This document shows, piece after piece, positions 15,626-31,699 of a DNA stretch of 39,612 bases; within the stretch, counting starts at the first letter, position 1, and the number at the start of each line of letters is the position of its first letter. Made by a program: the position numbers and the translations under genes. The notes beneath the pieces were generated by a model. It did no database searches. It saw only the letters and a list, made by a program, of their open reading frames with translations, and was not told the DNA's origin. The stretch comes from a virus, in IMG/VR virus record IMGVR_UViG_3300021449_000180; one strand, written 5' to 3'.

Positions 15626-16159
15626 TCACGCGTCACCCGCCGCCGGTGGCGTCGCCTGCGCCTGCGAGACGGTCTGCACCCAGGCCCGCAGCGGACGATC
15701 ACCGACGACGTCGTCCGGGAGGTCATCCTGGTAGACATTCGCTTCCGCCCGGGGGTCGCCATCGTCGGCGTCGATGTTGTGGTGGATGCAGACGCTGAAC
15801 GGCCAGCGCGACGGGTCCCCAGGGATAGAGTAGTTCCCCGCGCTGGTCCGGTCCAGGGCCGCCGGCGCGGCCAGGTAGAACGACCGGTCGCCCTTCCACC
15901 GCGCAACGATGACGCTGGCAGCGTCGAACTGGTCGCCGAAATGCTGAAGTTCAGTGACTTCCCGGCCCGTGGGGTTCCGGGGCGGCCCGCCGGATTTCAG
16001 TTCGCCACAGATGACGACGCCGCCCGATGCAGCCAGGACGTCCGGCGCTTCCTCCGGTTGCGTACCGGACGCGGGCGACCGGATGCCTTCCCAGCCCAGC
16101 GCCGATAGGCAGTTCAACAGGTGTCGTTCCTGTTCAGTCCCGTCCATCATCCACTCCAT
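15626..16159 (-). CDS. hjc: Holliday junction resolvase, archaeal Hjc type
   Basis: GTEQERHLLNCLSALGWEGIRSPASG...PDVLAASGGVVICGELKSG carries the Hjc E...D...E-x-K pattern. The start is taken at the internal ATG 16159 because the upstream track extension is Arg/Ser-rich. Confidence 0.7.
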   Translation of the reverse strand: MEWMMDGTEQERHLLNCLSALGWEGIRSPASGTQPEEAPDVLAASGGVVICGELKSGGPPRNPTGREVTELQHFGDQFDAASVIVARWKGDRSFYLAAPAALDRTSAGNYSIPGDPSRWPFSVCIHHNIDADDGDPRAEANVYQDDLPDDVVGDRPLRAWVQTVSQAQATPPAAGDA

Positions 16160-16307
16160 CCGGGTTGAGGCCGGGGATGCGGCGTTCGATACCCCGGGCG
16201 ATGCACGCCGTCGCCGTGAGTAGGACGCCGGCGTCGCCACGCTGGTCGTCGTGGTCGTCGTTGCGGTGGGTCAGTAGTGCGGTTTCGCCGTCGTCACTCC
16301 CCACCAT
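16134..16307 (-). CDS. Possible small acidic protein (57 aa)
   Basis: It fills the gap between the 142-aa gene and hjc. The first two thirds show the strong third-position G/C pattern of real genes here. It overlaps both neighbours. Confidence 0.3.
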   Translation of the reverse strand: MVGSDDGETALLTHRNDDHDDQRGDAGVLLTATACIARGIERRIPGLNPDGVDDGRD

Positions 16308-16985: not shown

Positions 16986-17888
16986 TTAGTCGTCGGGGTC
17001 CTGATCCTCCCGCATCGTCGACCGCCTCACTGCCTCCCCCCACGACGCCATCGCGTCAGCCTGCTGGGACTGCGGGTCGTCCAGGATGCCCAGGTCCTTC
17101 AGTTCGCGGATGTCCCGCTGCCGCATCCGCGCTTTCGGCAGGTTCACCGGCAGTTCATCTTCAATTTCGACCGGCTCCCCATTCGTCGGGTCAACGACGA
17201 CGTCCCCGTCAGCGACGATCACTTCGTCCTGCGTCAGTAGTTCCCGGACCTGCCGCAGCGTCACGCCCTTCAACAGCACTTGATGCACGCAGACGTCGAA
17301 CAGCCGGTCAGCCTTCCCGGTCAAGTGGTCAGGACTAACGGGCGGGGCATCAGCAGCAGCGTGCTGGCGCGGAGCAGCCTGCGCGACGTGTCCATCACCC
17401 TGGTCGTCGACGCCGTCACCACCGCCGTCAGCGGCCTGTAATGCGTCCTGACTGACGTGGTCCAGGATCGGCGGGCTATACCGGTCCGCATCCCCCGGGT
17501 AGGCGTCGAACGGCGCATCGTCCATGTAGGTCCAGAAGACACGCCTGATCTTCGTCGCCAGCGGCGGGTCATGCTCCCGGAAATAATCGAACAACCCTGT
17601 CGCATCCTGTTCCGCGGCGTACAGCCCGTGTGACAACGCGTTCCGGTTCCCCTCCGGTGCGCCGCCACCGGACGTCTTCTTTCCCGCCACTGCGTTCCCG
17701 TTCCGCGCCGTCCCGTGGTTTTCAGGCGGCCCCGACCCGTCGCGGGGATGCATATAACACCGTTCATCCGCGTCGTCGACCGGAAACTGGCAGGGCGCGT
17801 CCGTCGACGCCGTGTCGTCGTACCCGCAGACATAGGTATCCCCACCATCGCCGGTAGCGTCGCCCTGTCCTTGGTCGTCGTCCACCAT
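16986..17888 (-). CDS. terS: Terminase small subunit-like protein
   Basis: 300 aa from the ATG at 17888. The track extension to 18323 is Arg/His/Pro-rich and overlaps another gene. The motif APEGNRNALSHGLYA is the GNxNAxxHGxY signature seen in P27/YjcR-type small terminases. It lies upstream of terL. Confidence 0.55.
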   Translation of the reverse strand: MVDDDQGQGDATGDGGDTYVCGYDDTASTDAPCQFPVDDADERCYMHPRDGSGPPENHGTARNGNAVAGKKTSGGGAPEGNRNALSHGLYAAEQDATGLFDYFREHDPPLATKIRRVFWTYMDDAPFDAYPGDADRYSPPILDHVSQDALQAADGGGDGVDDQGDGHVAQAAPRQHAAADAPPVSPDHLTGKADRLFDVCVHQVLLKGVTLRQVRELLTQDEVIVADGDVVVDPTNGEPVEIEDELPVNLPKARMRQRDIRELKDLGILDDPQSQQADAMASWGEAVRRSTMREDQDPDD

Positions 17889-17910
17889 ACAGTATCGGTA
17901 TGCTGTTGAA

Positions 17911-17920
17911 TCCTGATAAC
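17911..17920 (-). promoter_or_regulatory. TATA-like box (GTTATCAGGA on the coding strand) 31 nt before the terS ATG
   Basis: It lies in the 122-nt gap upstream of 17888. The spacing fits a leaderless promoter. Confidence 0.3.
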
Positions 17921-18010
17921 AGTTCGCCGCCACCGGACCACGGACTGCGACCGGCTTCAGGAATGGGCTGCCGCAGGGCGCGGGTCGTGGGTCGGGAGAA
18001 CGGGGGGTGG

Positions 18011-18205
18011 TTAGTTCTGGGTGTCGGTGTCGTCGACGTCCTGTTGGAGTGATTCGATGGCTTGCTGGCGGGTGAGGTAGTCGGTGATGTCCGACATGTC
18101 GACGGTGTCGGCCTGTGCTTTGCCGTATTGGTAGGCGTAGCCGTAGGACAGGAGAACGATGACGAAGGCTCCGGCCCCGATGGCGACGGATAGTGGGTCG
18201 ACCAT
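18011..18205 (-). CDS. Small membrane protein (one TM helix)
   Basis: 64 aa with N-terminus VAIGAGAFVIVLLSYGYAY and an acidic C-terminus. It is the first gene after the late element at 18230-18260. Confidence 0.6.
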   Translation of the reverse strand: MVDPLSVAIGAGAFVIVLLSYGYAYQYGKAQADTVDMSDITDYLTRQQAIESLQQDVDDTDTQN

Positions 18206-18229
18206 GCGGGTGGGTGTTGGTCTGGGTGA

Positions 18230-18260
18230 GGTAAGTAGTGGCGTGACGCGGTGGCTGGGG
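18230..18260 (-). promoter_or_regulatory. Late-gene element copy (CCCCAGCCACCGCGTCACGCCACTACTTACC on the coding strand)
   Basis: Core cgtgacgcggtgg at 18242-18254. The CTTACC box starts 30 nt before the ATG at 18205. Confidence 0.55.
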
Positions 18261-18276
18261 TGTCGATAGGGCGTGA

Positions 18277-18300
18277 GGGTAGGGGTGGTGCCGGGTGGGG
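18277..18300 (+). other. Canonical G-quadruplex-forming motif GGGTAGGGGTGGTGCCGGGTGGGG
   Basis: Four G3+ runs with loops of 7 nt or less, inside a G+T-rich ORF-free tract. Confidence 0.5.
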
Positions 18301-18328
18301 TGGCCGGCGCGACGTGACGACAAGTTGG

Positions 18329-18371
18329 CCCCCGCGGCCTTCGGATGGGTTGTCCTGTCGGCCAGCGGGGG
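18329..18371. other. Stable GC hairpin (11-bp stem with one bulge, 20-nt loop)
   Basis: cccccgcggcc (18329-18339) pairs with ggcc-a-gcggggg (18360-18371). Confidence 0.5.
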
Positions 18372-18514
18372 GTTGCGACGATGTCGTGGGGTAGCTATGG
18401 TGCGTGCGGGACGCCCTCTTTGGACGGATGCCCTATTGGGGGCGTGTCGCCGGGGGCGTTCGTGGATGGTGTCGTGTGAGGGTGATCACTCCGTGTGGGT
18501 GGTTGTCGGGGTGG

Positions 18515-18545
18515 TATTTCAGTCAGCGTGACGCGGTGGCGGGGT
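18515..18545 (-). promoter_or_regulatory. Orphan late-gene element copy (ACCCCGCCACCGCGTCACGCTGACTGAAATA on the coding strand)
   Basis: Core at 18527-18539 overlaps the last codons and stop of the 129-aa gene. No ORF follows for about 290 nt. Confidence 0.45.
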
Positions 18546-18912
18546 CGTCCATGTTGATGTCGGGGTCGATCTGGTAGGCCTGGACGTGCTGGATGTTGTG
18601 GACGGTGGCGTTGTCGACGACGTCTTCGACGTAGGCTTTCAACCGGGTCGGGGTTGGGCCGTCGGCGTGGCTGCCAGTGTCAGTGTGGGTGTCGCTGTTG
18701 GTGTCGACCAGGACCAGCGTTTGTTGTCGTCCGCTGGGCTGGTAGGCGACCGTGGTGATGTAGACGTCGTGACCCCAGTCGTCTGGGTCGTCTGCGGGCG
18801 TCAGGACGTACCTGATGGGGACTTCGGTGCCTGGGCGGGTGGTGGCGTAGGCTGCGAAGACGCCCAGCGTGATGGCCAGGAGGATCGCCAGCGTCGCGGC
18901 GATGGGGTCCAT
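18523..18912 (-). CDS. Hypothetical protein with an N-terminal TM helix
   Basis: 129 aa with N-terminus IAATLAILLAITLGVFAAYA. It is the last gene of the early block. Confidence 0.6.
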   Translation of the reverse strand: MDPIAATLAILLAITLGVFAAYATTRPGTEVPIRYVLTPADDPDDWGHDVYITTVAYQPSGRQQTLVLVDTNSDTHTDTGSHADGPTPTRLKAYVEDVVDNATVHNIQHVQAYQIDPDINMDDPATASR

Positions 18913-22527: not shown

Positions 22528-22779
22528 TCAGTCATCAGTAGGCCCGCCGGTGTCGTAAGTTTTTGATAGTGCCTGTTCAGTGGATTCCAGAAGGTCCCTT
22601 CGAAGGTCGTCAGAGGCTTCTGCACCCAGGTCAACCGTTACTTCGCCGCCGGATAACGGGATAATCATCTGGACCCATGCTCCCTGTTCATCTTCTTCGA
22701 CCCTGACCTGAATCTGCGTTTCAGGTTGATGGCGCTGGCTAATGTTCAGCCGTGGTATGTAACCCCTGAGGTCAGGCAT
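22528..22779 (-). CDS. Small protein encoded in a low-GC patch
   Basis: 83 aa from the internal ATG 22779 (MPDLRGYIPRLNISQRHQPETQIQVRV...). My hand count gives about 53% G+C over 200 nt, well below the surroundings. Confidence 0.5.
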   Translation of the reverse strand: MPDLRGYIPRLNISQRHQPETQIQVRVEEDEQGAWVQMIIPLSGGEVTVDLGAEASDDLRRDLLESTEQALSKTYDTGGPTDD

Positions 22780-23134
22780 CCCTTCCGTCCCCCTGTTGGC
22801 GTTCGCGCGGGTCGACGTCGGGCCAGTCTTCGAAGCTGGGGTCCGACAGCCGGTTCCCGATAGCGTGATCCAGGTCGTCCTGGATGTCGCTATGCAGCGT
22901 TCGGGCCATCGACCGGAGGGCACGGCGGCCCTCCGGGTCGTCCAGCGCGATGGCGGGGTCGATGCGGACCTTCGTGGACTGGTAGGCGTCAAATGATTCG
23001 TAGTCGCCGGTCGATACGGTTTCGTCGGCGCTGACGGTCATCCCGACCGCGATCATCCCGGCGTCGTCGGGGTCGTCAGCGACCTGGACGGTCGTGCCGT
23101 CGACGGTGACGGTATCAGTGTCGGTGTCTGCCAT
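22772..23134 (-). CDS. Hypothetical acidic protein
   Basis: 120 aa from the internal ATG 23134 (MADTDTDTVTVDG...). Confidence 0.55.
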   Translation of the reverse strand: MADTDTDTVTVDGTTVQVADDPDDAGMIAVGMTVSADETVSTGDYESFDAYQSTKVRIDPAIALDDPEGRRALRSMARTLHSDIQDDLDHAIGNRLSDPSFEDWPDVDPRERQQGDGRDA

Positions 23135-23271
23135 AGGGTGCGCCGCTGACGCGGGCACAAGGCGGGTCCCGTTGTCGCAGGGGCCAGGCGTCCGCCCCGC
23201 CGGGTCGACGCGACTGTGCGTCGCCCTGGGCGGCATAGCGGACGAAATAACTGGGGTTCGAAGACCGCCCG

Positions 23272-23418
23272 TCAGGTGGCGTCTGTCCAGTCGTGCTTCG
23301 GGCTACGCGTGTCGCCTTCCCAGCAGGGTTCTTCAGGCGGCGTATAGCCCGCCCGGGACCGCCTCCCGCAGCGCGTGCAGACGACATCGTCGTCAACCGG
23401 GTCGACGTCACCGGTCAT
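23272..23418 (-). CDS. Small CxxC protein (48 aa, below the ORF-track cutoff)
   Basis: Hand translation gives MTGDVDPVDDDVVCTRCGRRSRAGYTPPEEPCWEGDTRSPKHDWTDAT. ATGA overlap with the upstream membrane-protein gene. Confidence 0.45.
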   Translation of the reverse strand: MTGDVDPVDDDVVCTRCGRRSRAGYTPPEEPCWEGDTRSPKHDWTDAT

Positions 23419-24085: not shown

Positions 24086-24491
24086 CGCCGTCGCCCCCGC
24101 TGAACGCCGTCATTTCGTCCACCGGGTGTGCGTCACCATTGACCTGCTGGCCCAGTCGCTGGTACAGGTCAGCGAGGTCGGCGGCCAGGGCGTCCAGGTC
24201 TTCGGCGTCGGCCCATACCGCTGCGGCGGCGACGGCGGTGATGGCGTCGTCGCCGTCTATTGGGGCGTCGGGGTCGATGTCGATGTCCTGGGTGGTTGGG
24301 CCGTTGATGGCGACTTCGAAGACGTAGCGTCGTTCCGTCGCCTGGCCGGTGGCGACGTTGATGATGCCACTAAGTCCGCGTGCGTCGCGGGTTACTTCCT
24401 TCAGTTCGAATTCGCGGGCGGTGCCGCCCGCGGCTTCGATAGCGTGCTGTACGTCGTCTGCGGCTTTGAAGTCGATGTCGGTGTCGTTCAT
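24078..24491 (-). CDS. Hypothetical acidic protein
   Basis: 137 aa from the internal ATG 24491 (MNDTDIDFKAADD...). ATGA overlap with the 368-aa gene. Confidence 0.55.
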   Translation of the reverse strand: MNDTDIDFKAADDVQHAIEAAGGTAREFELKEVTRDARGLSGIINVATGQATERRYVFEVAINGPTTQDIDIDPDAPIDGDDAITAVAAAAVWADAEDLDALAADLADLYQRLGQQVNGDAHPVDEMTAFSGGDGDV

Positions 24492-25594
24492 GCGTCGATA
24501 GGGTCGGCGTCGTCGTTGTTCAGTAACGGTTCGGCGTGGCCCTGCCGGGGGTCGTAGCCAGCAGCGGCCAGGGCGTCGATGATGTCCTGGGTTGCTGGCG
24601 TCGACCCCAGGTCGACCTGATTCGCTGCGGCGGCGATGGACTTCAGGTCGTTGTAACTCCCCTGGTCGCTGTACCACGCTTCCCAGGCCGACGTCCGGGC
24701 TTCGACGCCGACGTCGGCGTCAGCGGGGGCGGCTTCGACATCGCGGCCATCTTTATCGCTGGGGACGACCGTCTCCGGGTCGCTTCCCCCAGGGGTCGCG
24801 TCGACGTCAGCCGCTGCGTCGTCGCTGTCGCGGAACCGGCCCAGGCCGGTGTCGTCTTCGTGCGACCGCGGCGGTTCGATGTCGACGACGTCCAGGGTCC
24901 CCGCGGCGGCGTGATCCTGGACGTACTCCGGGACCGTCCCGTCTTCGTGCTGGGTGTAGACGACTTCCTGAAGATAGGCATACCCGATGACCGCCCACCC
25001 GACGTCGGTGTCGGGATGGATGACCCAGACGCGCGTGATCCCGGGTTCAACGACGGGCGGGGCCTGCCGCTTCGACAGCGGGATGGCTTTCGATATACCC
25101 AACGTGACGGCTTCGTCAATGAAGTCCCCCGGGTCAGGGTAGTGGGTCTTCCCGGCCCGCATCAGGATGTCGGCGTGCGGTCGCTTCCCGTGCGCCGCCA
25201 GGTCGATTTCCCCGAAGTGATCAGCGTCGAAACGGCGGGCGTCCAGCCGGTCGACGTGCCGCCGGGCTTCACTCCCCGGTGTGGCGTCCGGGCTGTCGTA
25301 CAGGCCCTTGTCGACCATGTTCTGGACGGCTGTCGTGTCGGTCGCGTCGCCGGGGTATTCGCGGACGAAGTCCGATAGGTCGTCCAGCGCGAACTGGGAC
25401 GACAGGCCGTCGAACCGCAGGTACCCCCGCGTGAATTGGCCGTCAGTCCCCATTTCGCGGTACGGTACTGGCGGGTCCAGGCGGACGAACGACGGGAGGA
25501 CGCCGTCGGGGCTGCCGATGACGCCCCGGATGTACGCCTTCCCGTGCGACAGGAACCCGCATCCGCGTTCGACGTTCGCTATGGTTCTGGTCAT
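24488..25594 (-). CDS. Conserved-looking protein of unknown function next to PCNA (candidate replication protein)
   Basis: 368 aa, the largest early product. N-terminus MTRTIANVERGCGFLSHGKAYIRG. The globular part is about 250 aa, followed by an acidic linker and a small C-terminal domain. No catalytic motif recognised. Confidence 0.6.
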   Translation of the reverse strand: MTRTIANVERGCGFLSHGKAYIRGVIGSPDGVLPSFVRLDPPVPYREMGTDGQFTRGYLRFDGLSSQFALDDLSDFVREYPGDATDTTAVQNMVDKGLYDSPDATPGSEARRHVDRLDARRFDADHFGEIDLAAHGKRPHADILMRAGKTHYPDPGDFIDEAVTLGISKAIPLSKRQAPPVVEPGITRVWVIHPDTDVGWAVIGYAYLQEVVYTQHEDGTVPEYVQDHAAAGTLDVVDIEPPRSHEDDTGLGRFRDSDDAAADVDATPGGSDPETVVPSDKDGRDVEAAPADADVGVEARTSAWEAWYSDQGSYNDLKSIAAAANQVDLGSTPATQDIIDALAAAGYDPRQGHAEPLLNNDDADPIDA

Positions 25595-25602
25595 CGTTCG
25601 AT

Positions 25603-26505
25603 TTACTCCGACTGAATCCGCGGGGCCAAGAGGAACTGGCCTGACGCGTTCCAGTCGGCGTGATTGAACTGTAGCATCGTCGGGTATTCGATCCCGAACT
25701 TCAGGGTGACGCGGTCCATCTTCGACCGCTTCAACCCCTTCGTCATGTCCCGCAGGTAGTCCAGGCTGAACAGCGAACCCTGGCCGTCACCGTCTTCAGC
25801 GCCCTCTATCCAGGCGGCGTTCGGGAAGACCGCGGTGTCGGCGCGGTCGTCGCTGTCGCTGTCAGCTAACTGGACGTCCCTGGACATGGTTGATCCGACG
25901 ACCAGCGCCGATCCGTCGATGGCAACGCCGGCGTGGTCGTGGCCGTCCGTCAGCGACTTCACGGCGTCGTTCAGCGCGTCGATCCCGGGCGTCGCCCGAA
26001 ACGGCAGGTCGATCCCGGGGACGTCTGGTTCGTCGCGCACGGCGTCGGGGTCGATCAGGCTGAACACGGTGACGCGCTTCATCTGCTGGTCCGGCCTGAT
26101 GACGGCGACGCGCATCCGCGGGACGTCACCCCGGGGGTCCAGGATGTCGATGCGGACGGGGTCGTCGTCCGGCATCCGGGCGAACGACAACGCGGACGTC
26201 AACGTGTCGAAGTTGACGCCGACGGTGACGTCGCGGTTGACCTGGAAGCCGCTGAACCCGTCCGCGTGGACCGTCAGATCGATCATGCCGACGTTCGCCG
26301 GGTCGACCGCAGTGATCGACAGGCCGTCCGGGTCGACGTTCAGTTTCGCCTCTTTGACCAGCGCGGTCGGGAGCCGTAGAAGGGACCGGATCGGTTTCCC
26401 GGTCGTGGCGAACGCCGCGGCGCTGTCGTCCGGGGCGTCGAACCCTAAGTCGTCGCCGGTGTCTTCCGGGACCTGCGTTCTCCCCGCGTCAGGCATCGGC
26501 ATCAC
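25603..26505 (-). CDS. pcn: PCNA (DNA sliding clamp), archaeal type, with a ~45-aa N-terminal extension
   Basis: LNVDPDGLSITAVDPANVGMIDL..., SLFSLDYLRDMTKGL and the C-terminal FLLAPRIQSE match archaeal PCNA hallmarks. The likely ATG is at 26496. Confidence 0.8.
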   Translation of the reverse strand: MMPMPDAGRTQVPEDTGDDLGFDAPDDSAAAFATTGKPIRSLLRLPTALVKEAKLNVDPDGLSITAVDPANVGMIDLTVHADGFSGFQVNRDVTVGVNFDTLTSALSFARMPDDDPVRIDILDPRGDVPRMRVAVIRPDQQMKRVTVFSLIDPDAVRDEPDVPGIDLPFRATPGIDALNDAVKSLTDGHDHAGVAIDGSALVVGSTMSRDVQLADSDSDDRADTAVFPNAAWIEGAEDGDGQGSLFSLDYLRDMTKGLKRSKMDRVTLKFGIEYPTMLQFNHADWNASGQFLLAPRIQSE

Positions 26506-26854
26506 CCTGGGGGACGACGCCCTTCGCGTGGCGTTCGCCGGTCTTCGATATGACGACGTCGACGGTGTCGCCGACCGCCAGGTGCTGGTTGTCGGTGTTC
26601 TGGATGAACGTAGCGACGCCGTCGATGCGGCCCATCGGGTCGCCTTTCTTCGTGTTCGTTCCGTCGTCTTCGATGACGGCTTCGTAGGTCGTGCCGACGG
26701 TGAGGACGTCGTCGACGTTCGACACCTTCTGGCCGTTCGGCAGGGCTTCGACCGTCGACCGGAGGTCGTCCAGTTCGGTGGTGACCGTCACCTGTAGGTC
26801 GTCGATTCGATTCAGCAAGTCGTCCGTCGTGACGTGATCGTCAGGTCCTTCCAT
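26489..26854 (-). CDS. TRAM-domain protein
   Basis: 121 aa. KGDPMGRIDGVATFIQNTDNQHLAVGDTVDVVISKTGERHAKGVV fits the TRAM beta-barrel pattern (G.g.a.idG...fi....vGd.v.v.i.k....a.a). Confidence 0.5.
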   Translation of the reverse strand: MEGPDDHVTTDDLLNRIDDLQVTVTTELDDLRSTVEALPNGQKVSNVDDVLTVGTTYEAVIEDDGTNTKKGDPMGRIDGVATFIQNTDNQHLAVGDTVDVVISKTGERHAKGVVPQGDADA

Positions 26855-26856
26855 AG

Positions 26857-27444
26857 CTATAGGGGTCCGCTGTCGCTGTAGCCGAAGGTTGCGTCTAAGA
26901 GGACGATGCGGCCAGCGTCGGCGTCGATGCCGATGACGTCCCAGGGGCCGACGCCGACGTACCGTTGGCCCAGCCGGCGGACGGCGGTGACGCTGACGTC
27001 AGGGTCGCAGGTGACGGTCAGTTCCGTCGGTCGCGTGCGGCGAACGGTGTAGTCGCCTGCTGGGCGGTCTTCGTCGATGACCGCCGCGGCGCTTTCGGTG
27101 GACTGGGCGACCGCGTGCCGCTGCCGTCGATCCAGGCGTTCGATGATGTCGTCCTGGATGGCGTCCGGGTCGGTCAGCGTGACGAAGGTCGCGGAGCCAA
27201 CGCCGTCACGCCGGCACTCCGGGCAAACCCCCGACCGTTCGATGCGGCCCGCCGCTGATCGGCCTGTCTGGGGCGACAGCGGCGTGCCGCACCGGTGACA
27301 GTCGTACTCCATCGGCGTCCCCGTTCGCGGCGTTACGTTCTCCGTGTCGGTGCCGGCGTCGTCGTGGGCGTCCAGTTGGTCGGTGATCATATCGACGTGT
27401 GCGTCGCGGGTCGGGATGTCGTCGGGGTCAGTCATCGTCATCAC
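26857..27444 (-). CDS. Zinc-ribbon protein, paralogous N-terminus to 20777-21094
   Basis: 195-aa track ORF. The likely start is MTDPDDIPTRD (ATG 27435). It contains CHRCGTPLSPQTGRSAAGRIERSGVCPEC. Confidence 0.6.
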   Translation of the reverse strand: MMTMTDPDDIPTRDAHVDMITDQLDAHDDAGTDTENVTPRTGTPMEYDCHRCGTPLSPQTGRSAAGRIERSGVCPECRRDGVGSATFVTLTDPDAIQDDIIERLDRRQRHAVAQSTESAAAVIDEDRPAGDYTVRRTRPTELTVTCDPDVSVTAVRRLGQRYVGVGPWDVIGIDADAGRIVLLDATFGYSDSGPL

Positions 27445-28517: not shown

Positions 28518-28889
28518 TTAGTAGGGAGTGCGGCGCTGGCGGGCCACTTCGCGCTGGTTACAGTTGTGACAGGCGATCTGTTCGCCTGTGGTGTCGCCCC
28601 GGAACCAGCCAACGGGGCTGTTGTCGTCGCTGTCGTCCGGTTCTGAACACAATGGACACATGAAGTGTCGTCGTCCGCAGTTGGGACAGTCGAACCGGAG
28701 CGCGGACTGTTGGAACCGATCCCGCAGGTCGTTCCCGCGGTCGTCCGCGCCGGACAGGTGCTGTACGTACCGACCGTGTTCTTCGAAGGTCAGGCTGGTC
28801 GGGTCGGCGTCGGTATCGTCGATGTCGACGTCCAGGTCGTCGCGGTCGTCGTGGAAGCATCGAACCGTCTTCCCGTTGTGTGCTGACAT
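28518..28889 (-). CDS. Zinc-ribbon protein, first gene of the early block
   Basis: 123 aa with three CxxC pairs (CPNC, CPLC, CHNC). It is preceded by the 860-nt ORF-free region. Confidence 0.6.
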   Translation of the reverse strand: MSAHNGKTVRCFHDDRDDLDVDIDDTDADPTSLTFEEHGRYVQHLSGADDRGNDLRDRFQQSALRFDCPNCGRRHFMCPLCSEPDDSDDNSPVGWFRGDTTGEQIACHNCNQREVARQRRTPY

Positions 28890-29012
28890 CGTTCGGTCCT
28901 GTGCGCCAGCGGTGTCGGCCTGGCGCGGGCCGACCGCCCCGCCAGTCGCCCCGACCCGTCGCGGGCCAGGGCGAAGGGCGGTCTGACGGCAGAACCGTCT
29001 GTTGATTCACCC

Positions 29013-29020
29013 CTTATAGA
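29013..29020 (-). promoter_or_regulatory. TCTATAAG box (candidate early promoter, proximal)
   Basis: The coding strand reads GTGTTCTATAAGGGGTG, about 127 nt upstream of the first early ATG (28889). The same octamer recurs at 29504-29511. Confidence 0.35.
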
Positions 29021-29503
29021 ACACGTGTCGTCGGTGCGTTCAGCGGGACCTGAACGCGCGATGGGGTCCGCCGCGCCCTACGGCCAAGGGGGTCGACCTG
29101 CGGGCGCTGGGCCAGTCGCCTGTAACAGCAGTTGAAGCCCGATGTCGCGCCGCCCGGAAGTTCCCGTCACCTGTTGCGTCATCCCCCAGGACAGGGGTCG
29201 GCGTCATCGGGTCGCCCGGTCAATCCGTGGGCGGCGCGGTGTGATGCGTCCGACATCCCGCGGCAGAAATGTGGCCCGGAGCGTCGGGGGCGGGCTGGTC
29301 GACGTCGCGGCGTGACGCCAGGAAGCCCGGGGGCGGCCCGATTATCGACGTCATCTAGAAGCCCCAACCGCCGATGGCGCGATGCCAGTCTGCGACCAGG
29401 TCCGCCCCGCCAGGTGACGCGCCCCACGTACTGTGTCCCCGCGGGGCCAGGGTGGCTATCAGATGTGTCGCCAGTTCCTACCCCCACCTTCGAAGGTTAG
29501 CCA

Positions 29504-29511
29504 CTTATAGA
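29504..29511 (-). promoter_or_regulatory. TCTATAAG box (candidate early promoter, distal; could also fire on the plus strand)
   Basis: The coding strand reads GAATCTATAAGTGGCT. It is an A/T box in otherwise GC-rich non-coding DNA. Confidence 0.3.
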
Positions 29512-29598
29512 TTCGGGTGACTTTCGAAACCCATGATGGCGACCGCAGGCGCGGTCCTTTAGTCACTGCACGGCCTACGCATGGGTGGGTCGCGGGTC

Positions 29599-29617
29599 GA
29601 TTCGAACGGTTCGAATC
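29599..29617. repeat. 19-nt perfect palindrome GATTCGAAC-G-GTTCGAATC
   Basis: Read directly. It is part of a cluster of four TTCGAA sites at 29489, 29523, 29601 and 29610. Confidence 0.8.
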
Positions 29618-29726
29618 CATCAGCCCCGCCAGGCGGCCCGCACCCCGCTTCTGGACGTCACGTTACCCAGGCCGACGCCCAACCACCGACCCACCATCGA
29701 ACACGGACAGCGCCGCCAGCAGCCCC

Positions 29727-29744
29727 GCCAGCGCCGACGCTGGC
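29727..29744 (-). terminator. Hairpin just after the last late gene (7-bp stem GCCAGCG/CGCTGGC, 4-nt loop)
   Basis: It lies 9 nt downstream of the tail gene stop at 29753. No clear oligo-T tract follows. Confidence 0.3.
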
Positions 29745-29752
29745 GGCACGGC

Positions 29753-31699
29753 TTAGATGCCTTTTCGCGTGCGGTCGATAGCCCGACCCTGATTGATCAC
29801 GGTCCCGGTGACGTCATCCTCCTGGACGAACTTCAGCCGCCCCCGGAGTTGATTCGGGCCTTCCTGGAACTGGACGCGTTCCAACGGCGTATCCGTCCGG
29901 GACCCGTCAGCGAACCAGTCCACCGGATAGGAGTACCCCGGCAGCGTCGTCGTCGGCAGCGAACTGACGGTCCCGCGTTGTTCGCGGGCGTCGACCTTCT
30001 TGGATAAGATGTCGACAGCAGCGTACCTGATCTGTTCGACCGTCGTCAGGTCCGGTAACACTTCGAAATACGACTCCCGGCCATAGTCGGTGACTTCGTC
30101 CGTGTCTTCGACAGTCACCACCGGCCTGGTCCCATCGACGGCCAGCGCCCCGTAGACTGTCACTTCGTTCGCGTAGTCGACGAACGACAACCGTGGGCTG
30201 CGGTTCACGACGGTCCAGTCTTTCGGCTTCTTGATCGCGCCGGTTTCGAAGCTTTCAACCTGTTTAACCAGGTTCCCCTGGTCATCGGTCGCGGCGTGGT
30301 CGATCACGAACCGGAAGCCCGCCTTTTCATGCAGGTCCGTCAGGATCGACAGGGGGCTGCCCCTGTACGTCTGGTTTTCGATGATCGATACGTCGCTGCC
30401 GTCGTAAGAGAGCCGGTACTGTTCGATAGCCGCCGGCTCATAGTTCTCCGTCGGGCTGGCTGTCGACCGGGTCGCGGACGTCGCGCCGATGTCGATCACG
30501 GCCTGAAGCCGCGTCCCGATGTCGCCGCTGAACCCCGTCGTGATGGCCGTTGTGTCCGTTGATGACGCGTCCTGCGGGTACCACGGCCCGTCGTTCAGTC
30601 GGGCCTGTAGGACGTCAGCGGACGCGCCCTGGGTCATGGTGATGTCAACCGATGCCTGTTCGACGTTGAAATCCAGGTTTTCCTCCGGCAACGCCAACAC
30701 GTCCTTCGACACCTGCGGCGTCAACTGGTCAGGGTACAGCCCGGGGCCGGCCAGGTAGCCGTCGGCGTCGACGCTGCCGTCGAACGTCGGGCTATAGCGG
30801 CTGTCGTAGACGTACATCGCGTCGACGTTCATCGGTTCGCTGGTTTCGGTCACGTCGATTTCAGCCTGATGCGATCCACTGGACAGTTCACTACTCCGCG
30901 CAGACGTGGTCCGCCACTGAAGTCCGCTTGTGTAGGCGTCAGCGAAGACGCTTTCGACCGTTTCCCCACCGACGGTGATGTCGAACGCCGGGTGGGTGCC
31001 GTCGACGGCGTTCACCCTGAAGGCGAACCGGGCGTCGCCTGCCGGGATGGTGTAGTCGGTGGTGAAGTCAAACCGGAGGTCGCCGGCGATGTCCGCGACT
31101 TCCATCGCTTCCCCAGCCGAATACGCCGATCCGCTGACGACGCCGTTCCCACCACTGGCATCTTCCGCTTCCTGGAAGAACCCGATTTGGGCGGGCTTCA
31201 GTTCAACGCCGTCAGCGACCAGCGGCGCGGTCGGATCAACGCCTGCCAGCAGGCTGCTGAAGCTATCGCCGGCGGCGACCCGTTGAACGGTCGTGTCGGT
31301 GGTGACAGTGCTGCCGTCCTGGGTTCGCACGGTCGCGTCGAACCCGGTGTCCTGGGTCCAGACCTGCCGGATCGCTTCGTCCGTGCGTATGAGGCTGAAC
31401 GACCGTTCGATGGCACTATCTTTCAGGTCATCACCGATCCCAGGGCCGTTCAGCCGCACGCGGCCCCGTTTTTGATCCCAGTCCAGTTCGCGGAGATACC
31501 CCCTGAATAGTAGCGCGTCGGTTGCATAGACGCGACACGGCTTCAGGACGTGGTCTTTGATCGACCGATTGAACGGGATTTCGGCGTCGACGTCCGCCAG
31601 GGCGGTGTGCGGCTTTGCGATGTCGACCGTCACGACGTCGCTTTCAGTCAGCGTCGCATCTGGCGACCCTGCCGCTCCTAGTTCGATTCGGTAGGACAT
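29753..31699 (-). CDS. Large tail tip / baseplate structural protein
   Basis: 648 aa, the last gene of the tail block. It has a beta-rich composition; the call rests on size and position only. Confidence 0.5.
   Translation of the reverse strand: MSYRIELGAAGSPDATLTESDVVTVDIAKPHTALADVDAEIPFNRSIKDHVLKPCRVYATDALLFRGYLRELDWDQKRGRVRLNGPGIGDDLKDSAIERSFSLIRTDEAIRQVWTQDTGFDATVRTQDGSTVTTDTTVQRVAAGDSFSSLLAGVDPTAPLVADGVELKPAQIGFFQEAEDASGGNGVVSGSAYSAGEAMEVADIAGDLRFDFTTDYTIPAGDARFAFRVNAVDGTHPAFDITVGGETVESVFADAYTSGLQWRTTSARSSELSSGSHQAEIDVTETSEPMNVDAMYVYDSRYSPTFDGSVDADGYLAGPGLYPDQLTPQVSKDVLALPEENLDFNVEQASVDITMTQGASADVLQARLNDGPWYPQDASSTDTTAITTGFSGDIGTRLQAVIDIGATSATRSTASPTENYEPAAIEQYRLSYDGSDVSIIENQTYRGSPLSILTDLHEKAGFRFVIDHAATDDQGNLVKQVESFETGAIKKPKDWTVVNRSPRLSFVDYANEVTVYGALAVDGTRPVVTVEDTDEVTDYGRESYFEVLPDLTTVEQIRYAAVDILSKKVDAREQRGTVSSLPTTTLPGYSYPVDWFADGSRTDTPLERVQFQEGPNQLRGRLKFVQEDDVTGTVINQGRAIDRTRKGI

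Follow-up and report, generated by a model that had tools for sequence, protein, structure and literature searches.

What is the function of a gap of almost 0.9 kb without genes at the boundary between the late and early genes of a virus genome? The question is raised by positions 28890-29752 of the IMG/VR virus record IMGVR_UViG_3300021449_000180, of which a stretch of 39,612 nt (hereafter the window) was analyzed. An earlier note on this DNA had described the gap as the only long noncoding stretch and, from its repeats, palindromes and A/T boxes, had proposed it as the site of the replication origin and the early promoters. Our analysis suggests that the gap most likely contains an early promoter followed by a large, conserved and folded noncoding leader RNA and works mainly as RNA, a reading that we hold with somewhat more confidence than doubt. 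The window has a G+C content of about 65% and carries almost all of its genes on the minus strand. Its large terminase is 36% identical to the homologue of Halorubrum virus CGphi46, and for the tail protein adjoining the gap, proteins of HATV-3 and Hardycor1 reach 25-27% identity; on the basis of these identities, the virus is an uncultured haloarchaeal tailed virus that is distant kin of Kirjokansivirales isolates.

The gap was found to be bounded as the earlier note had stated, with the stop codon of the last tail gene at 29753 and the ATG of the first early gene at 28889, and its lack of genes was borne out by three lines of evidence: (i) the spread of third-position G+C (GC3) between frames is at most 0.20 throughout the gap vs 0.3-0.5 in the flanking genes; (ii) the open reading frames (ORFs) listed inside it are Arg/Pro/Gly-rich; and (iii) close relatives show frameshifting single-base indels and have lost the only plausible internal ATG. 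The single-base indels and the nonconserved ATG thus rule out small ORFs hidden in the gap. It is the longest stretch of the window without a coding signal, but it is not the only noncoding one, as 18205-18522 is noncoding too. When compared with two IMG/VR relatives (43.3 and 44.9 kb), the gap was 96.4% identical (3.5% of sites differ), while the adjacent early genes were 89-90% identical at third codon positions (10-11% differ) and 95-98% identical at first and second positions. Because its identity lies above that of third codon positions, the gap is constrained, and along nearly all of its length we put its rate of evolution at about one third of the near-neutral one. By this measure, the gap is a functional, constrained control region.

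Relatives were drawn from IMG/VR, JGI, ENA and Logan assemblies, with the distant ones reached through tail-protein homologues (40-47% identity) and through the contig L097, and the nearer ones via the flanking early protein. A gene-free interval of 0.9-1.2 kb was detected after the last tail gene in L253, L254, L255/L256, L011 and L097, and was kept even where the tail protein is only 40-47% identical. These intervals have no GC3 coding signal, and their shared motifs include ACAGGCGACTGGCCCAGCG, CCTGGCGGGGCGG and ACCTTCGAAGG. The cultured relatives HATV-3 and Hardycor1 are without the gap, and a blastn search of the gap against annotated phages gave no match. A protein-anchored metagenome scan for further relatives gave no match either, and a 17-mer probe in IMG/VR returned as real only the two relatives already known. 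In box-gap-box DNA scans of metagenome and genome contigs, the pattern of which was too permissive, chance matches from high-G+C bacteria dominated and L097 was the sole real relative among the matches listed. ARAGORN found no tRNA in the window, and Rfam 15, searched with the whole window, gave no match at gathering thresholds; the best sub-threshold match in the gap had an E-value of 1.8 and 19 bits vs a threshold of 74.

The 3′ part of the gap, about 470 nt on the gene strand (28989-29456), was found to be alignable across six lineages (effectively about five independent ones, as the window and L001, and likewise L255 and L256, are near-identical). Its consensus fold defines the central feature of the gap:

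29011-29456, minus strand: conserved structured RNA domain of about 19 helices, from the alignment of six lineages.

The RNAalifold consensus of this domain comprises 96 pairs in 19 helices, and compensatory double changes were observed for 42 of the 96. Standard pairs fill 90.2% of cells, compared with 76.9 ± 1.1% in shuffled alignments (0 of 500 reach the observed value) and 37-46% in slid controls; similarly, the 42 pairs changed on both sides compare with 23.8 ± 2.9 after shuffling (0 of 500 reach this number) and 8-12 in slid controls. The gene strand was also compared with the opposite strand and with a coding control, for which the neighboring 470 nt of the tail gene were taken from these genomes and analyzed by an identical pipeline. 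In that order, (i) the consensus energy was -103.2, -88.0 and -57.5 kcal/mol; (ii) the covariation term was -4.3, -2.5 and +6.4; and (iii) the compensatory fraction of predicted pairs was 42/96, 36/95 and 17/100. Furthermore, G·U pairs of the gene strand turn into broken A·C pairs on the opposite strand. Together with the weaker fold of the opposite strand, these G·U patterns favor the gene strand, and the alignment as a whole shows a covariation-supported structure there. The suggestion of the earlier note that a 500-600-nt untranslated leader or noncoding RNA (ncRNA) might arise from the gap is thus very probably correct. Among the best helices are helix 2 (29440-29446 with 29422-29428), a helix of 29410-29419 with 29349-29358 that encloses a box discussed below (copy 2, 29404-29413), and helix 19 (29050-29056 with 29037-29043), which has the invariant loop GUCCCG. 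The palindrome CCCCGCGGGG at 29437-29446, listed correctly in the earlier note, is one strand of helix 2 (partner 29422-29428) and not a separate hairpin. The near-invariant ACAGGCGACUGGCCCAGCG at about 29105-29123 contains the second of the two GCCAGTCGCC copies that the note had counted, both of which were confirmed. A consensus fold of the three sequences from close relatives had been tried and was uninformative, with a covariation term of about 0.

Between the domain and the early genes lies a smaller module, which was found again elsewhere in the window:

28903-28989, minus strand: leader element, 87 nt, with the early ATG (28889) 13 nt downstream.
23141-23243, minus strand: second leader copy, upstream of the gene starting at 23134.

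The basal helix of the leader element (P1) is formed by CCGUC (28985-28989) and CCGCC (28977-28981), which pair with GGCGG-GGCGG (28934-28943, box copy 1), and it carries a variable apical hairpin (P2, 28946-28974). Two invariant boxes, CCGTC-AKA-CCGCC and CTGGCGG-GGCGGTC, are complementary to each other with the variable insert between them, and the 10-mer GCCCCGCCAG is the reverse complement of the second box and forms the 3′ strand of the basal helix. Positions 28903-28934 contain a stem B (GUCGGCC/GGCCGAC) and a stem A (GCGCCA/UGGCGC), which in our model probably form an H-type pseudoknot. The fold of the window copy has a z-score of -3.2. In total, with those added by a motif scan, 23 distinct copies were detected in about ten contigs, with up to four in a genome, and each lies 33-70 nt before a start codon. 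The modules are confined to intergenic junctions of the co-oriented array, where they end 4-35 nt before the start codon and precede early genes and accessory cassettes whose stop and start codons do not overlap. The element precedes the Zn-ribbon early gene in the seven contigs that were read in detail, and in L011 it is without the boxes.

Each copy was parsed separately because MAFFT alignments were not structure-consistent in the variable hairpins. Each of the 21 distinct P2 inserts folds into a hairpin across the entire interval (mean z = -3.2), with greater stability on the gene strand for 16 of them owing to G·U pairs. The nine pairs of P1 are almost invariant, the variants being U·G pairs and one U-A pair; C-to-U changes in the leader yield U·G wobbles. 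In stem B, GUCGG pairs with a conserved CCGAC and covaries as GUCAG/CUGAU, GUCGCC/GGCGAU and GUCGUC/GACGAC, while the second stem differs in every copy and interleaves with stem B in H-type order. This topology was found in 12 of 18 copies, with loops of 1-3, 0-1 and 2-6 nt and a mean of 11.4 bp vs 6.4 in shuffles; the two stems could instead be mutually exclusive alternatives. The second window copy, missed by the 10-mer count of the earlier note, has a covaried basal helix (GUCCGC...GCGGAC) and an extra hairpin, P4. It lies inside a 136-nt spacer between a Zn-ribbon ORF of 48 amino acids (23272-23418) and the gene at 23134, and its 3′ box and flank are also present in the relative L004. The annotated ATG at 23236 of ORF 22772-23236 falls inside this module and is probably not a real start.

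Further observations were made on individual modules. Some of them (L009, L010, L012 and window 23141-23170) carry an extra 3′ hairpin with a conserved loop, CGCGUCAGC or CACGUCAGC. The most distant, in L011 (6013-6127), has no G+C-rich boxes and keeps a hairpin with the loop CACGUAAGC on a covaried stem (UGCACC/GGUGCA). An 18-nt exact direct repeat, CCCGCGACGGGTCGGGGC on the gene strand, occurs in the apical hairpin of the leader (28948-28965) and 11 kb away at 17729-17746, where it lies in coding-looking sequence without boxes, probably by chance. Two known motifs were considered for the module and rejected: (i) the bulge-helix-bulge of splicing endonucleases, for which the geometry is wrong (a 3-nt bulge, 5-bp helix and 2 × 2 internal loop); and (ii) a preQ1 riboswitch, prompted by the pseudoknot and by the DpdA cassettes described below, which had no Rfam match and would not suit an element that precedes many unrelated genes.

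The restriction of the modules to intergenic junctions of a co-oriented array is what RNA punctuation would predict, with the modules as endonuclease processing or stabilizing signals that cut the early transcript into protected or near-leaderless mRNAs. Near-leaderless mRNAs are initiated efficiently by haloarchaeal ribosomes, no terminators were found between the genes, and an invariant basal helix below a variable upper stem resembles nuclease recognition sites. Nonetheless, the modules are not of the bulge-helix-bulge type and have no known nuclease partner (to our knowledge, RNase III is generally absent from haloarchaea), and punctuation would leave the 470-nt domain unexplained. We consider punctuation unlikely, though not so unlikely that it should be dropped.

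Upstream of the domain, sequences that resemble archaeal promoter elements, a TFB-responsive element (BRE) and a TATA box, were identified:

29486-29530, minus strand: putative early promoter, with BRE-like CCGAA (29512-29516) and TATA-like TCTATAAG (29504-29511).
29013-29020, minus strand: proximal TATA-like box TCTATAAG, 27 nt upstream of the first base of the leader element.

Both copies of TCTATAAG had been noticed earlier, and they were confirmed to occur in the gap only, where 0.03 copies are expected. The proposal that the distal copy is an early promoter is plausible, as BRE/TATA-like boxes were found at the matching place in relatives, about 30-50 nt upstream of the first helix in every lineage (e.g., L097, L253, L254 and L255). 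These boxes read CCGAATCTATAAG in the window, TTCGAAGGTTATAAG in L097, CCAAAGGTTTATTAC in L254 and CACAGATTTATTAG in L255, and ACCTTCGAAGG is common to the window, L097 and L253. The putative promoter of the window is flanked by the palindromes TTTCGAAA (29522-29529) and CCTTCGAAGG (29487-29496, also verified from the earlier note), the latter of which often adjoins the promoter-like box. In HF2, experimentally proven promoter repeats have the core TCTTTAAGTC (PMC8707807), which the TCTATAAGTG box of the window resembles. Transcription is predicted to start at about 29478-29485, and from there to the early genes no run of at least four T was detected in four of five lineages. This near-absence of T-runs suggests that the RNA is probably a 5′ leader of about 590 nt and not a terminated ncRNA, and that it probably continues into the early genes.

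The same near-absence bears on processive antitermination, by which the two-part module would act in cis on RNA polymerase like the put RNAs of HK022. A bipartite stem-loop unit of about 85 nt with an invariant helix base, located just downstream of a promoter and repeated in the early transcription unit, is consistent with this idea. However, there are no terminator-like T-runs downstream that would need suppression, the copies follow start codons and not promoters, and we know of no processive antitermination of such a kind for the archaeal RNA polymerase; among the explanations weighed here, we rate this one the least probable.

The proximal box suggests a different division of the region, in which the 470-nt domain is a free-standing, trans-acting ncRNA (a ribonucleoprotein [RNP] scaffold, a decoy or an RNA of ribozyme size) with its own promoter, and the early mRNA has a start of its own at the proximal TATA box, so that its 5′ untranslated region is the 87-nt module alone. 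The 27-nt distance to the leader element suits a promoter well, a weak closure of the domain is seen in the consensus fold (29449-29450 with 29011-29012), tertiary or ligand contacts are suggested by near-invariant unpaired stretches such as UUACAGGCGACUGGCCCAGCG, and the size and helix count are like those of large structured RNAs. Counter to this, the proximal box is not kept beyond the clade of the window: it reads TCTAT-AG in L001 and L002, and GATAAC, CAATAC, AGATCC or TGATTC in L097, L253, L254 and L255. It may be a second promoter specific to that clade. Moreover, the end of the domain is without a terminator signal, and the RNA has no Rfam relative. We therefore regard a free-standing RNA as doubtful, and extend the same guarded status to a bolder version, according to which the domain of about 0.5 kb would be a new class of large viral ncRNA, the first in an archaeal virus, that acts beyond the leader either in trans (as an RNP or catalytic RNA) or as a replication primer like ColE1 RNA II, with the CCUGGCGGGGCGG modules as dispersed partner or docking sites.

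The part of the gap upstream of the promoter holds the remaining repeats and palindromes, for which two features were delineated:

29725-29746, minus strand: 9-bp hairpin directly after the tail-gene stop; its 3′ arm holds box copy 4, CUGGCGGGGC (29722-29731).
29570-29650, minus strand: tentative upstream domain, in which box copy 3 (29623-29632) is followed after 5 nt by a small hairpin, the 19-nt palindrome.

The hairpin was described earlier as terminator-like and placed at 29727-29744; it exists, but its true span is larger, and it is not a canonical archaeal terminator because no U-run follows. Read by eye, distant lineages (L254) show a comparable box-bearing sequence soon after the tail gene. 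The order of a box and then a small hairpin recurs in several lineages, most clearly in L254. The 19-nt palindrome (29599-29617) was verified and is kept in close relatives only, and folds of the domain around it and box copy 3 do not surpass those of shuffles (z from +0.9 to -1.5); a DNA operator would be an equally good reading of this domain. The TTCGAA sites are clustered locally, as the note had reported, yet the motif is common genome-wide (34 sites vs 6.8 expected from dinucleotide shuffles), which renders the cluster in the gap less significant; we assume the excess to be a codon effect (Phe-Glu). Possible operator sites are the TTCGAA palindromes around the TATA box and, 100 nt upstream of it, the 19-nt palindrome. 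A tRNA-derived attP was also considered for GGTTCGAATCC (29608-29618), which is T-loop-like, and rejected: ARAGORN found no tRNA, the flanks form no T-stem, and there is no integrase.

The 10-mer GCCCCGCCAG would be the iteron if the gap were an origin. Its four copies at 28936, 29404, 29623 and 29722 were confirmed; they occur in the gap only and always on one strand (0.16 expected), with spacings of 99, 219 and 468 nt. An origin could work in either of two ways, with the boxes as DNA iterons or with the structured transcript as a primer held in an RNA-DNA hybrid, as in the ColE1 RNA II and phage T4 ori transcripts, which prime replication through a persistent hybrid of this type. The direct repeats of an invariant 10-13-mer, a mild sign change of the GC skew at about 29000-29500, and the status of the gap as the largest constrained noncoding region, conserved in position, all agree with an origin. 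So does the gene content: an integrase, Orc1/Cdc6, Rep or polymerase was not found in Pfam (most called genes) or PHROGs (ten early proteins), as the earlier note had said, and no initiator or primase gene was recognizable although a PCNA is present, and the primer form would explain why the initiator is missing; that note had missed this PCNA and also the Hjc resolvase that the window encodes. Several findings argue against an origin: (i) the repeated 10-mer forms the 3′ side of a conserved RNA helix and recurs at irregular intervals, relatives have further copies spread over several kb in front of genes, and no adjacent Rep or orc1/cdc6 gene was found; (ii) covariation that includes G·U pairs shows selection on a one-strand RNA; (iii) the gap is 69% G+C, which is not below the genome overall, and has no A+T-rich unwinding element, the only A+T-richer spot being the promoter-like box; (iv) no site like the origin recognition box (ORB) was found in the gap, since the consensus pattern TTCCAGTGGAAAC matched the window twice with up to three mismatches, both times outside the gap, vs 6.4 matches expected; (v) the extremes of the cumulative skew lie at about 17 kb and 33 kb and not in the gap; and (vi) the RNA is not G-rich, unlike usual R-loop primers. 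Thus, the iteron reading did not hold up, and an origin in the gap is improbable.

We return to the leader RNA as the preferred explanation. What was found in the gap is a noncoding element on the gene strand, between a promoter-like box and an ATG, with covariation beyond that of controls, as in structured cis-regulatory leaders generally. From these features, we infer a start site, co-transcription with the early genes, a pseudoknot, a protein partner and a regulatory outcome, which would most likely fit together as follows. The BRE/TATA promoter (29504-29516) would start transcription near 29480, toward the genes, to give a leader of about 590 nt composed of the 470-nt domain (29011-29456) and then the 87-nt module (28903-28989). 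With no terminator-like signal between this RNA and the early genes, they would be co-transcribed. The invariant box CCUGGCGGGGCGG, its partner CCGUC-NNN-CCGCC and the pseudoknot would form a common site for one trans-acting factor, for which the Zn-ribbon protein encoded behind the leader element and the TRAM-domain protein are candidates, and the large domain would add a further box (copy 2). Such a factor would coordinate the early cistrons downstream by acting on the initiation of translation at each of them or on the fate of their mRNA.

Several points weigh against this proposal. The large domain is supported by only about five independent lineages, and its weak parts are the long-range helices 1 and 9 and some of the short ones, with 82-86% of cells paired. 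Upstream of the promoter, the sequence with box copies 3 and 4 folds no better than chance, and these two copies would be in RNA only if transcription of the late operon reads through. The invariant sequence of the boxes also fits a DNA-binding protein, and the position of the promoter box relative to CCTTCGAAGG has shifted between lineages. In addition, the set of relatives is a lower bound, as chance matches dominated those listed by both large scans, and the predicted transcript, start site and protein partner are read from the sequence of an uncultured virus.

The leader element was also found to mark a site of gene exchange. In both closest relatives the gap is split by a 2.9-kb insertion that is bracketed by direct repeats of window 28907-28989, while the window has an empty slot with a single hybrid leader copy in which the crossover lies inside the ACCGCCC box. 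The slot (window position about 28989) is just upstream of the Zn-ribbon early gene, and the cassettes found there are bracketed by leader copies:

L001, 8790-11711 (also in L002/L004): DpdA (Pfam, E = 5.6e-20) and a protein of about 425 amino acids.
L007, 896-3486: DpdA, the protein of about 425 amino acids and an HNH protein.
L008, 464-988: Dam methylase.
L011, 4924-6012: C5 methylase.

In L097, a 434-amino-acid relative of the 425-amino-acid cassette protein has weak similarity to Toprim. A second site of change lies between the gene for a 195-amino-acid protein and the TRAM gene, where a 135-bp leader copy is present in L001 (13674-13808) and L004 (4245-4378). At this place the window (26868-26873) has a clean fusion, with stop and start codons 2 nt apart compared with 135 nt in relatives with the module, and the upstream protein has a slightly different C-terminus. 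The clean fusion in place of the 135-bp copy shows that the module is gained or lost as a unit.

These exchanges raise the question of whether the modules are chiefly recombination boundaries for accessory cassettes, with no role in expression. The bracketed 2.9-kb DpdA cassette, the hybrid copy of the window, the presence or absence of the 135-bp copy at 26868/26873, and the occupation of one slot by DpdA with HNH, Dam or C5 methylase in different relatives are what such boundaries would produce. However, no recombinase or integrase gene was found, and neither selection for RNA-type pairing nor a fixed distance to the start codon would be required of a boundary; the exchange of cassettes is more readily viewed as a side effect of having homologous modules in several places. 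We judge a pure boundary function very improbable, if a shade less so than antitermination. An integron attC-like site was rejected in the same context, as no recombinase gene was found and the sole crossover, in the ACCGCCC box, also fits homologous recombination.

Other genes and features of the window provide the setting of the gap:

28518-28889, minus strand: first early gene, encoding a protein of 123 amino acids with Zn-ribbon-like CxxC motifs.
26489-26854: TRAM-domain protein gene (Pfam).
25603-26505: PCNA homologue (Pfam).
24488-25594: conserved early protein of 368 amino acids beside PCNA, with no family match.
15626-16240: Hjc resolvase (Pfam).

Pfam matches were also obtained for a tail tube protein, a Mu-F-like head protein and a DUF7389 protein, and most early proteins had no match in Pfam or PHROGs. 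Residues 315-351 of the 368-amino-acid protein match the first 40 or so residues of a lysozyme chain in the PDB (5i8l, E = 9e-7) and, less strongly, a FimV chain, and may be a LysM-type motif; a single-sequence AlphaFold model of this protein was unusable (predicted local distance difference test score of 37). The noncoding stretch 18205-18522 (minus strand, about 320 nt) is C/A-rich and almost free of G on the gene strand, and no GC-skew jump in the window is sharper than the one that it causes. It sits between the last early gene (18523-18912) and the gene for a membrane protein of 64 amino acids (18011-18205), which heads the Hjc, terminase and structural genes, and may be a late promoter region or an alternative origin candidate. 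The listed ORF of 445 amino acids at 16986-18323 is probably spurious.

Large structured ncRNAs with strong covariation are rare, and this RNA is kept across lineages whose neighboring proteins have diverged to 40% identity. Its place, precisely where the late genes meet the early ones, suggests a role in the infection program. The module, placed before translationally uncoupled early genes, bears on how haloarchaea, without Shine-Dalgarno pairing, initiate on leadered or internal cistrons and, if it works as proposed, would give haloarchaeal genetics a portable unit for expression or regulation. As the modules bracket a hot spot for the swapping of DNA-modification (anti-restriction) cassettes, they also suggest a mechanism for accessory-gene turnover. 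For a long, repeat-rich gap, the label of an origin with iterons is most likely wrong here.

A parallel in position is found in RNase III processing sites, which lie between the early genes of T7: like the modules, these are repeated conserved hairpins at intergenic junctions of one co-oriented early unit. Here, however, the host is an archaeon without known RNase III, a pseudoknot and an invariant G+C-rich helix are added, and cleavage is a conjecture. Haloarchaeal initiation does not rely on Shine-Dalgarno pairing, and pseudoknots serve as translational operators in the leaders of T4 gene 32, E. coli rpsO (S15) and the alpha operon (S4). An H-type pseudoknot shortly upstream of a start codon, if it forms in the module, would be shared with these operators, as is a conserved recognition sequence suggestive of protein binding; the module differs in being multi-copy, in preceding many unrelated genes and in carrying an extra long hairpin, with a binding protein that is only putative. 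The put elements of HK022 are likewise cis-acting units of about 70-90 nt with two stem-loops, located just downstream of early promoters in more than one copy, yet they have no homology in sequence or structure to the modules, which follow gene starts, would be transcribed by an archaeal polymerase and have no evident terminators downstream. The mobile PeSL cassettes of T4-type phages, which Arbiol and colleagues are said to have described in 2010, reportedly consist of an early promoter and a terminator-like stem-loop; like the modules, they recur as regulatory stem-loop units on either side of accessory genes in a hyperplastic region, where cassettes are gained and lost through them, whereas the present modules are without promoters and have a more complex RNA structure.

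For the large domain, the nearest comparisons are GOLLD and ROOL, which are large structured ncRNAs of phages and prophages, and ColE1 RNA II, a structured leader-like transcript of about 550 nt. Like them, the domain measures about 0.5 kb, has many covarying helices along with highly conserved unpaired stretches, and is associated with mobile elements; it differs in its lack of an Rfam match, its archaeal host and its place as the 5′ leader of early genes. Among haloarchaeal viruses, the literature searched describes promoter-bearing A+T-rich repeats in HF2 (PMC8707807) and complex transcription in HFTV1, and neither this literature nor Rfam 15 contains a long structured leader for archaeal viruses. 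The intergenic repeats of HF2 (Russ, Pfeiffer and Dyall-Smith 2021, PMC8707807) resemble the modules in being repeated before genes of a haloarchaeal tailed virus with conserved sequence and position. They are, however, A+T-rich, 29-58 bp long and promoters themselves, and HF2 has no 470-nt structured domain, whereas the modules are about 85-100 nt long and G+C-rich, with covarying helices, a probable pseudoknot and no TATA-like motif; upstream of individual copies, such motifs occur irregularly and at varying distances. Overall, we file the RNA of the gap as a new RNA family of a known general kind, the structured viral leader or ncRNA.

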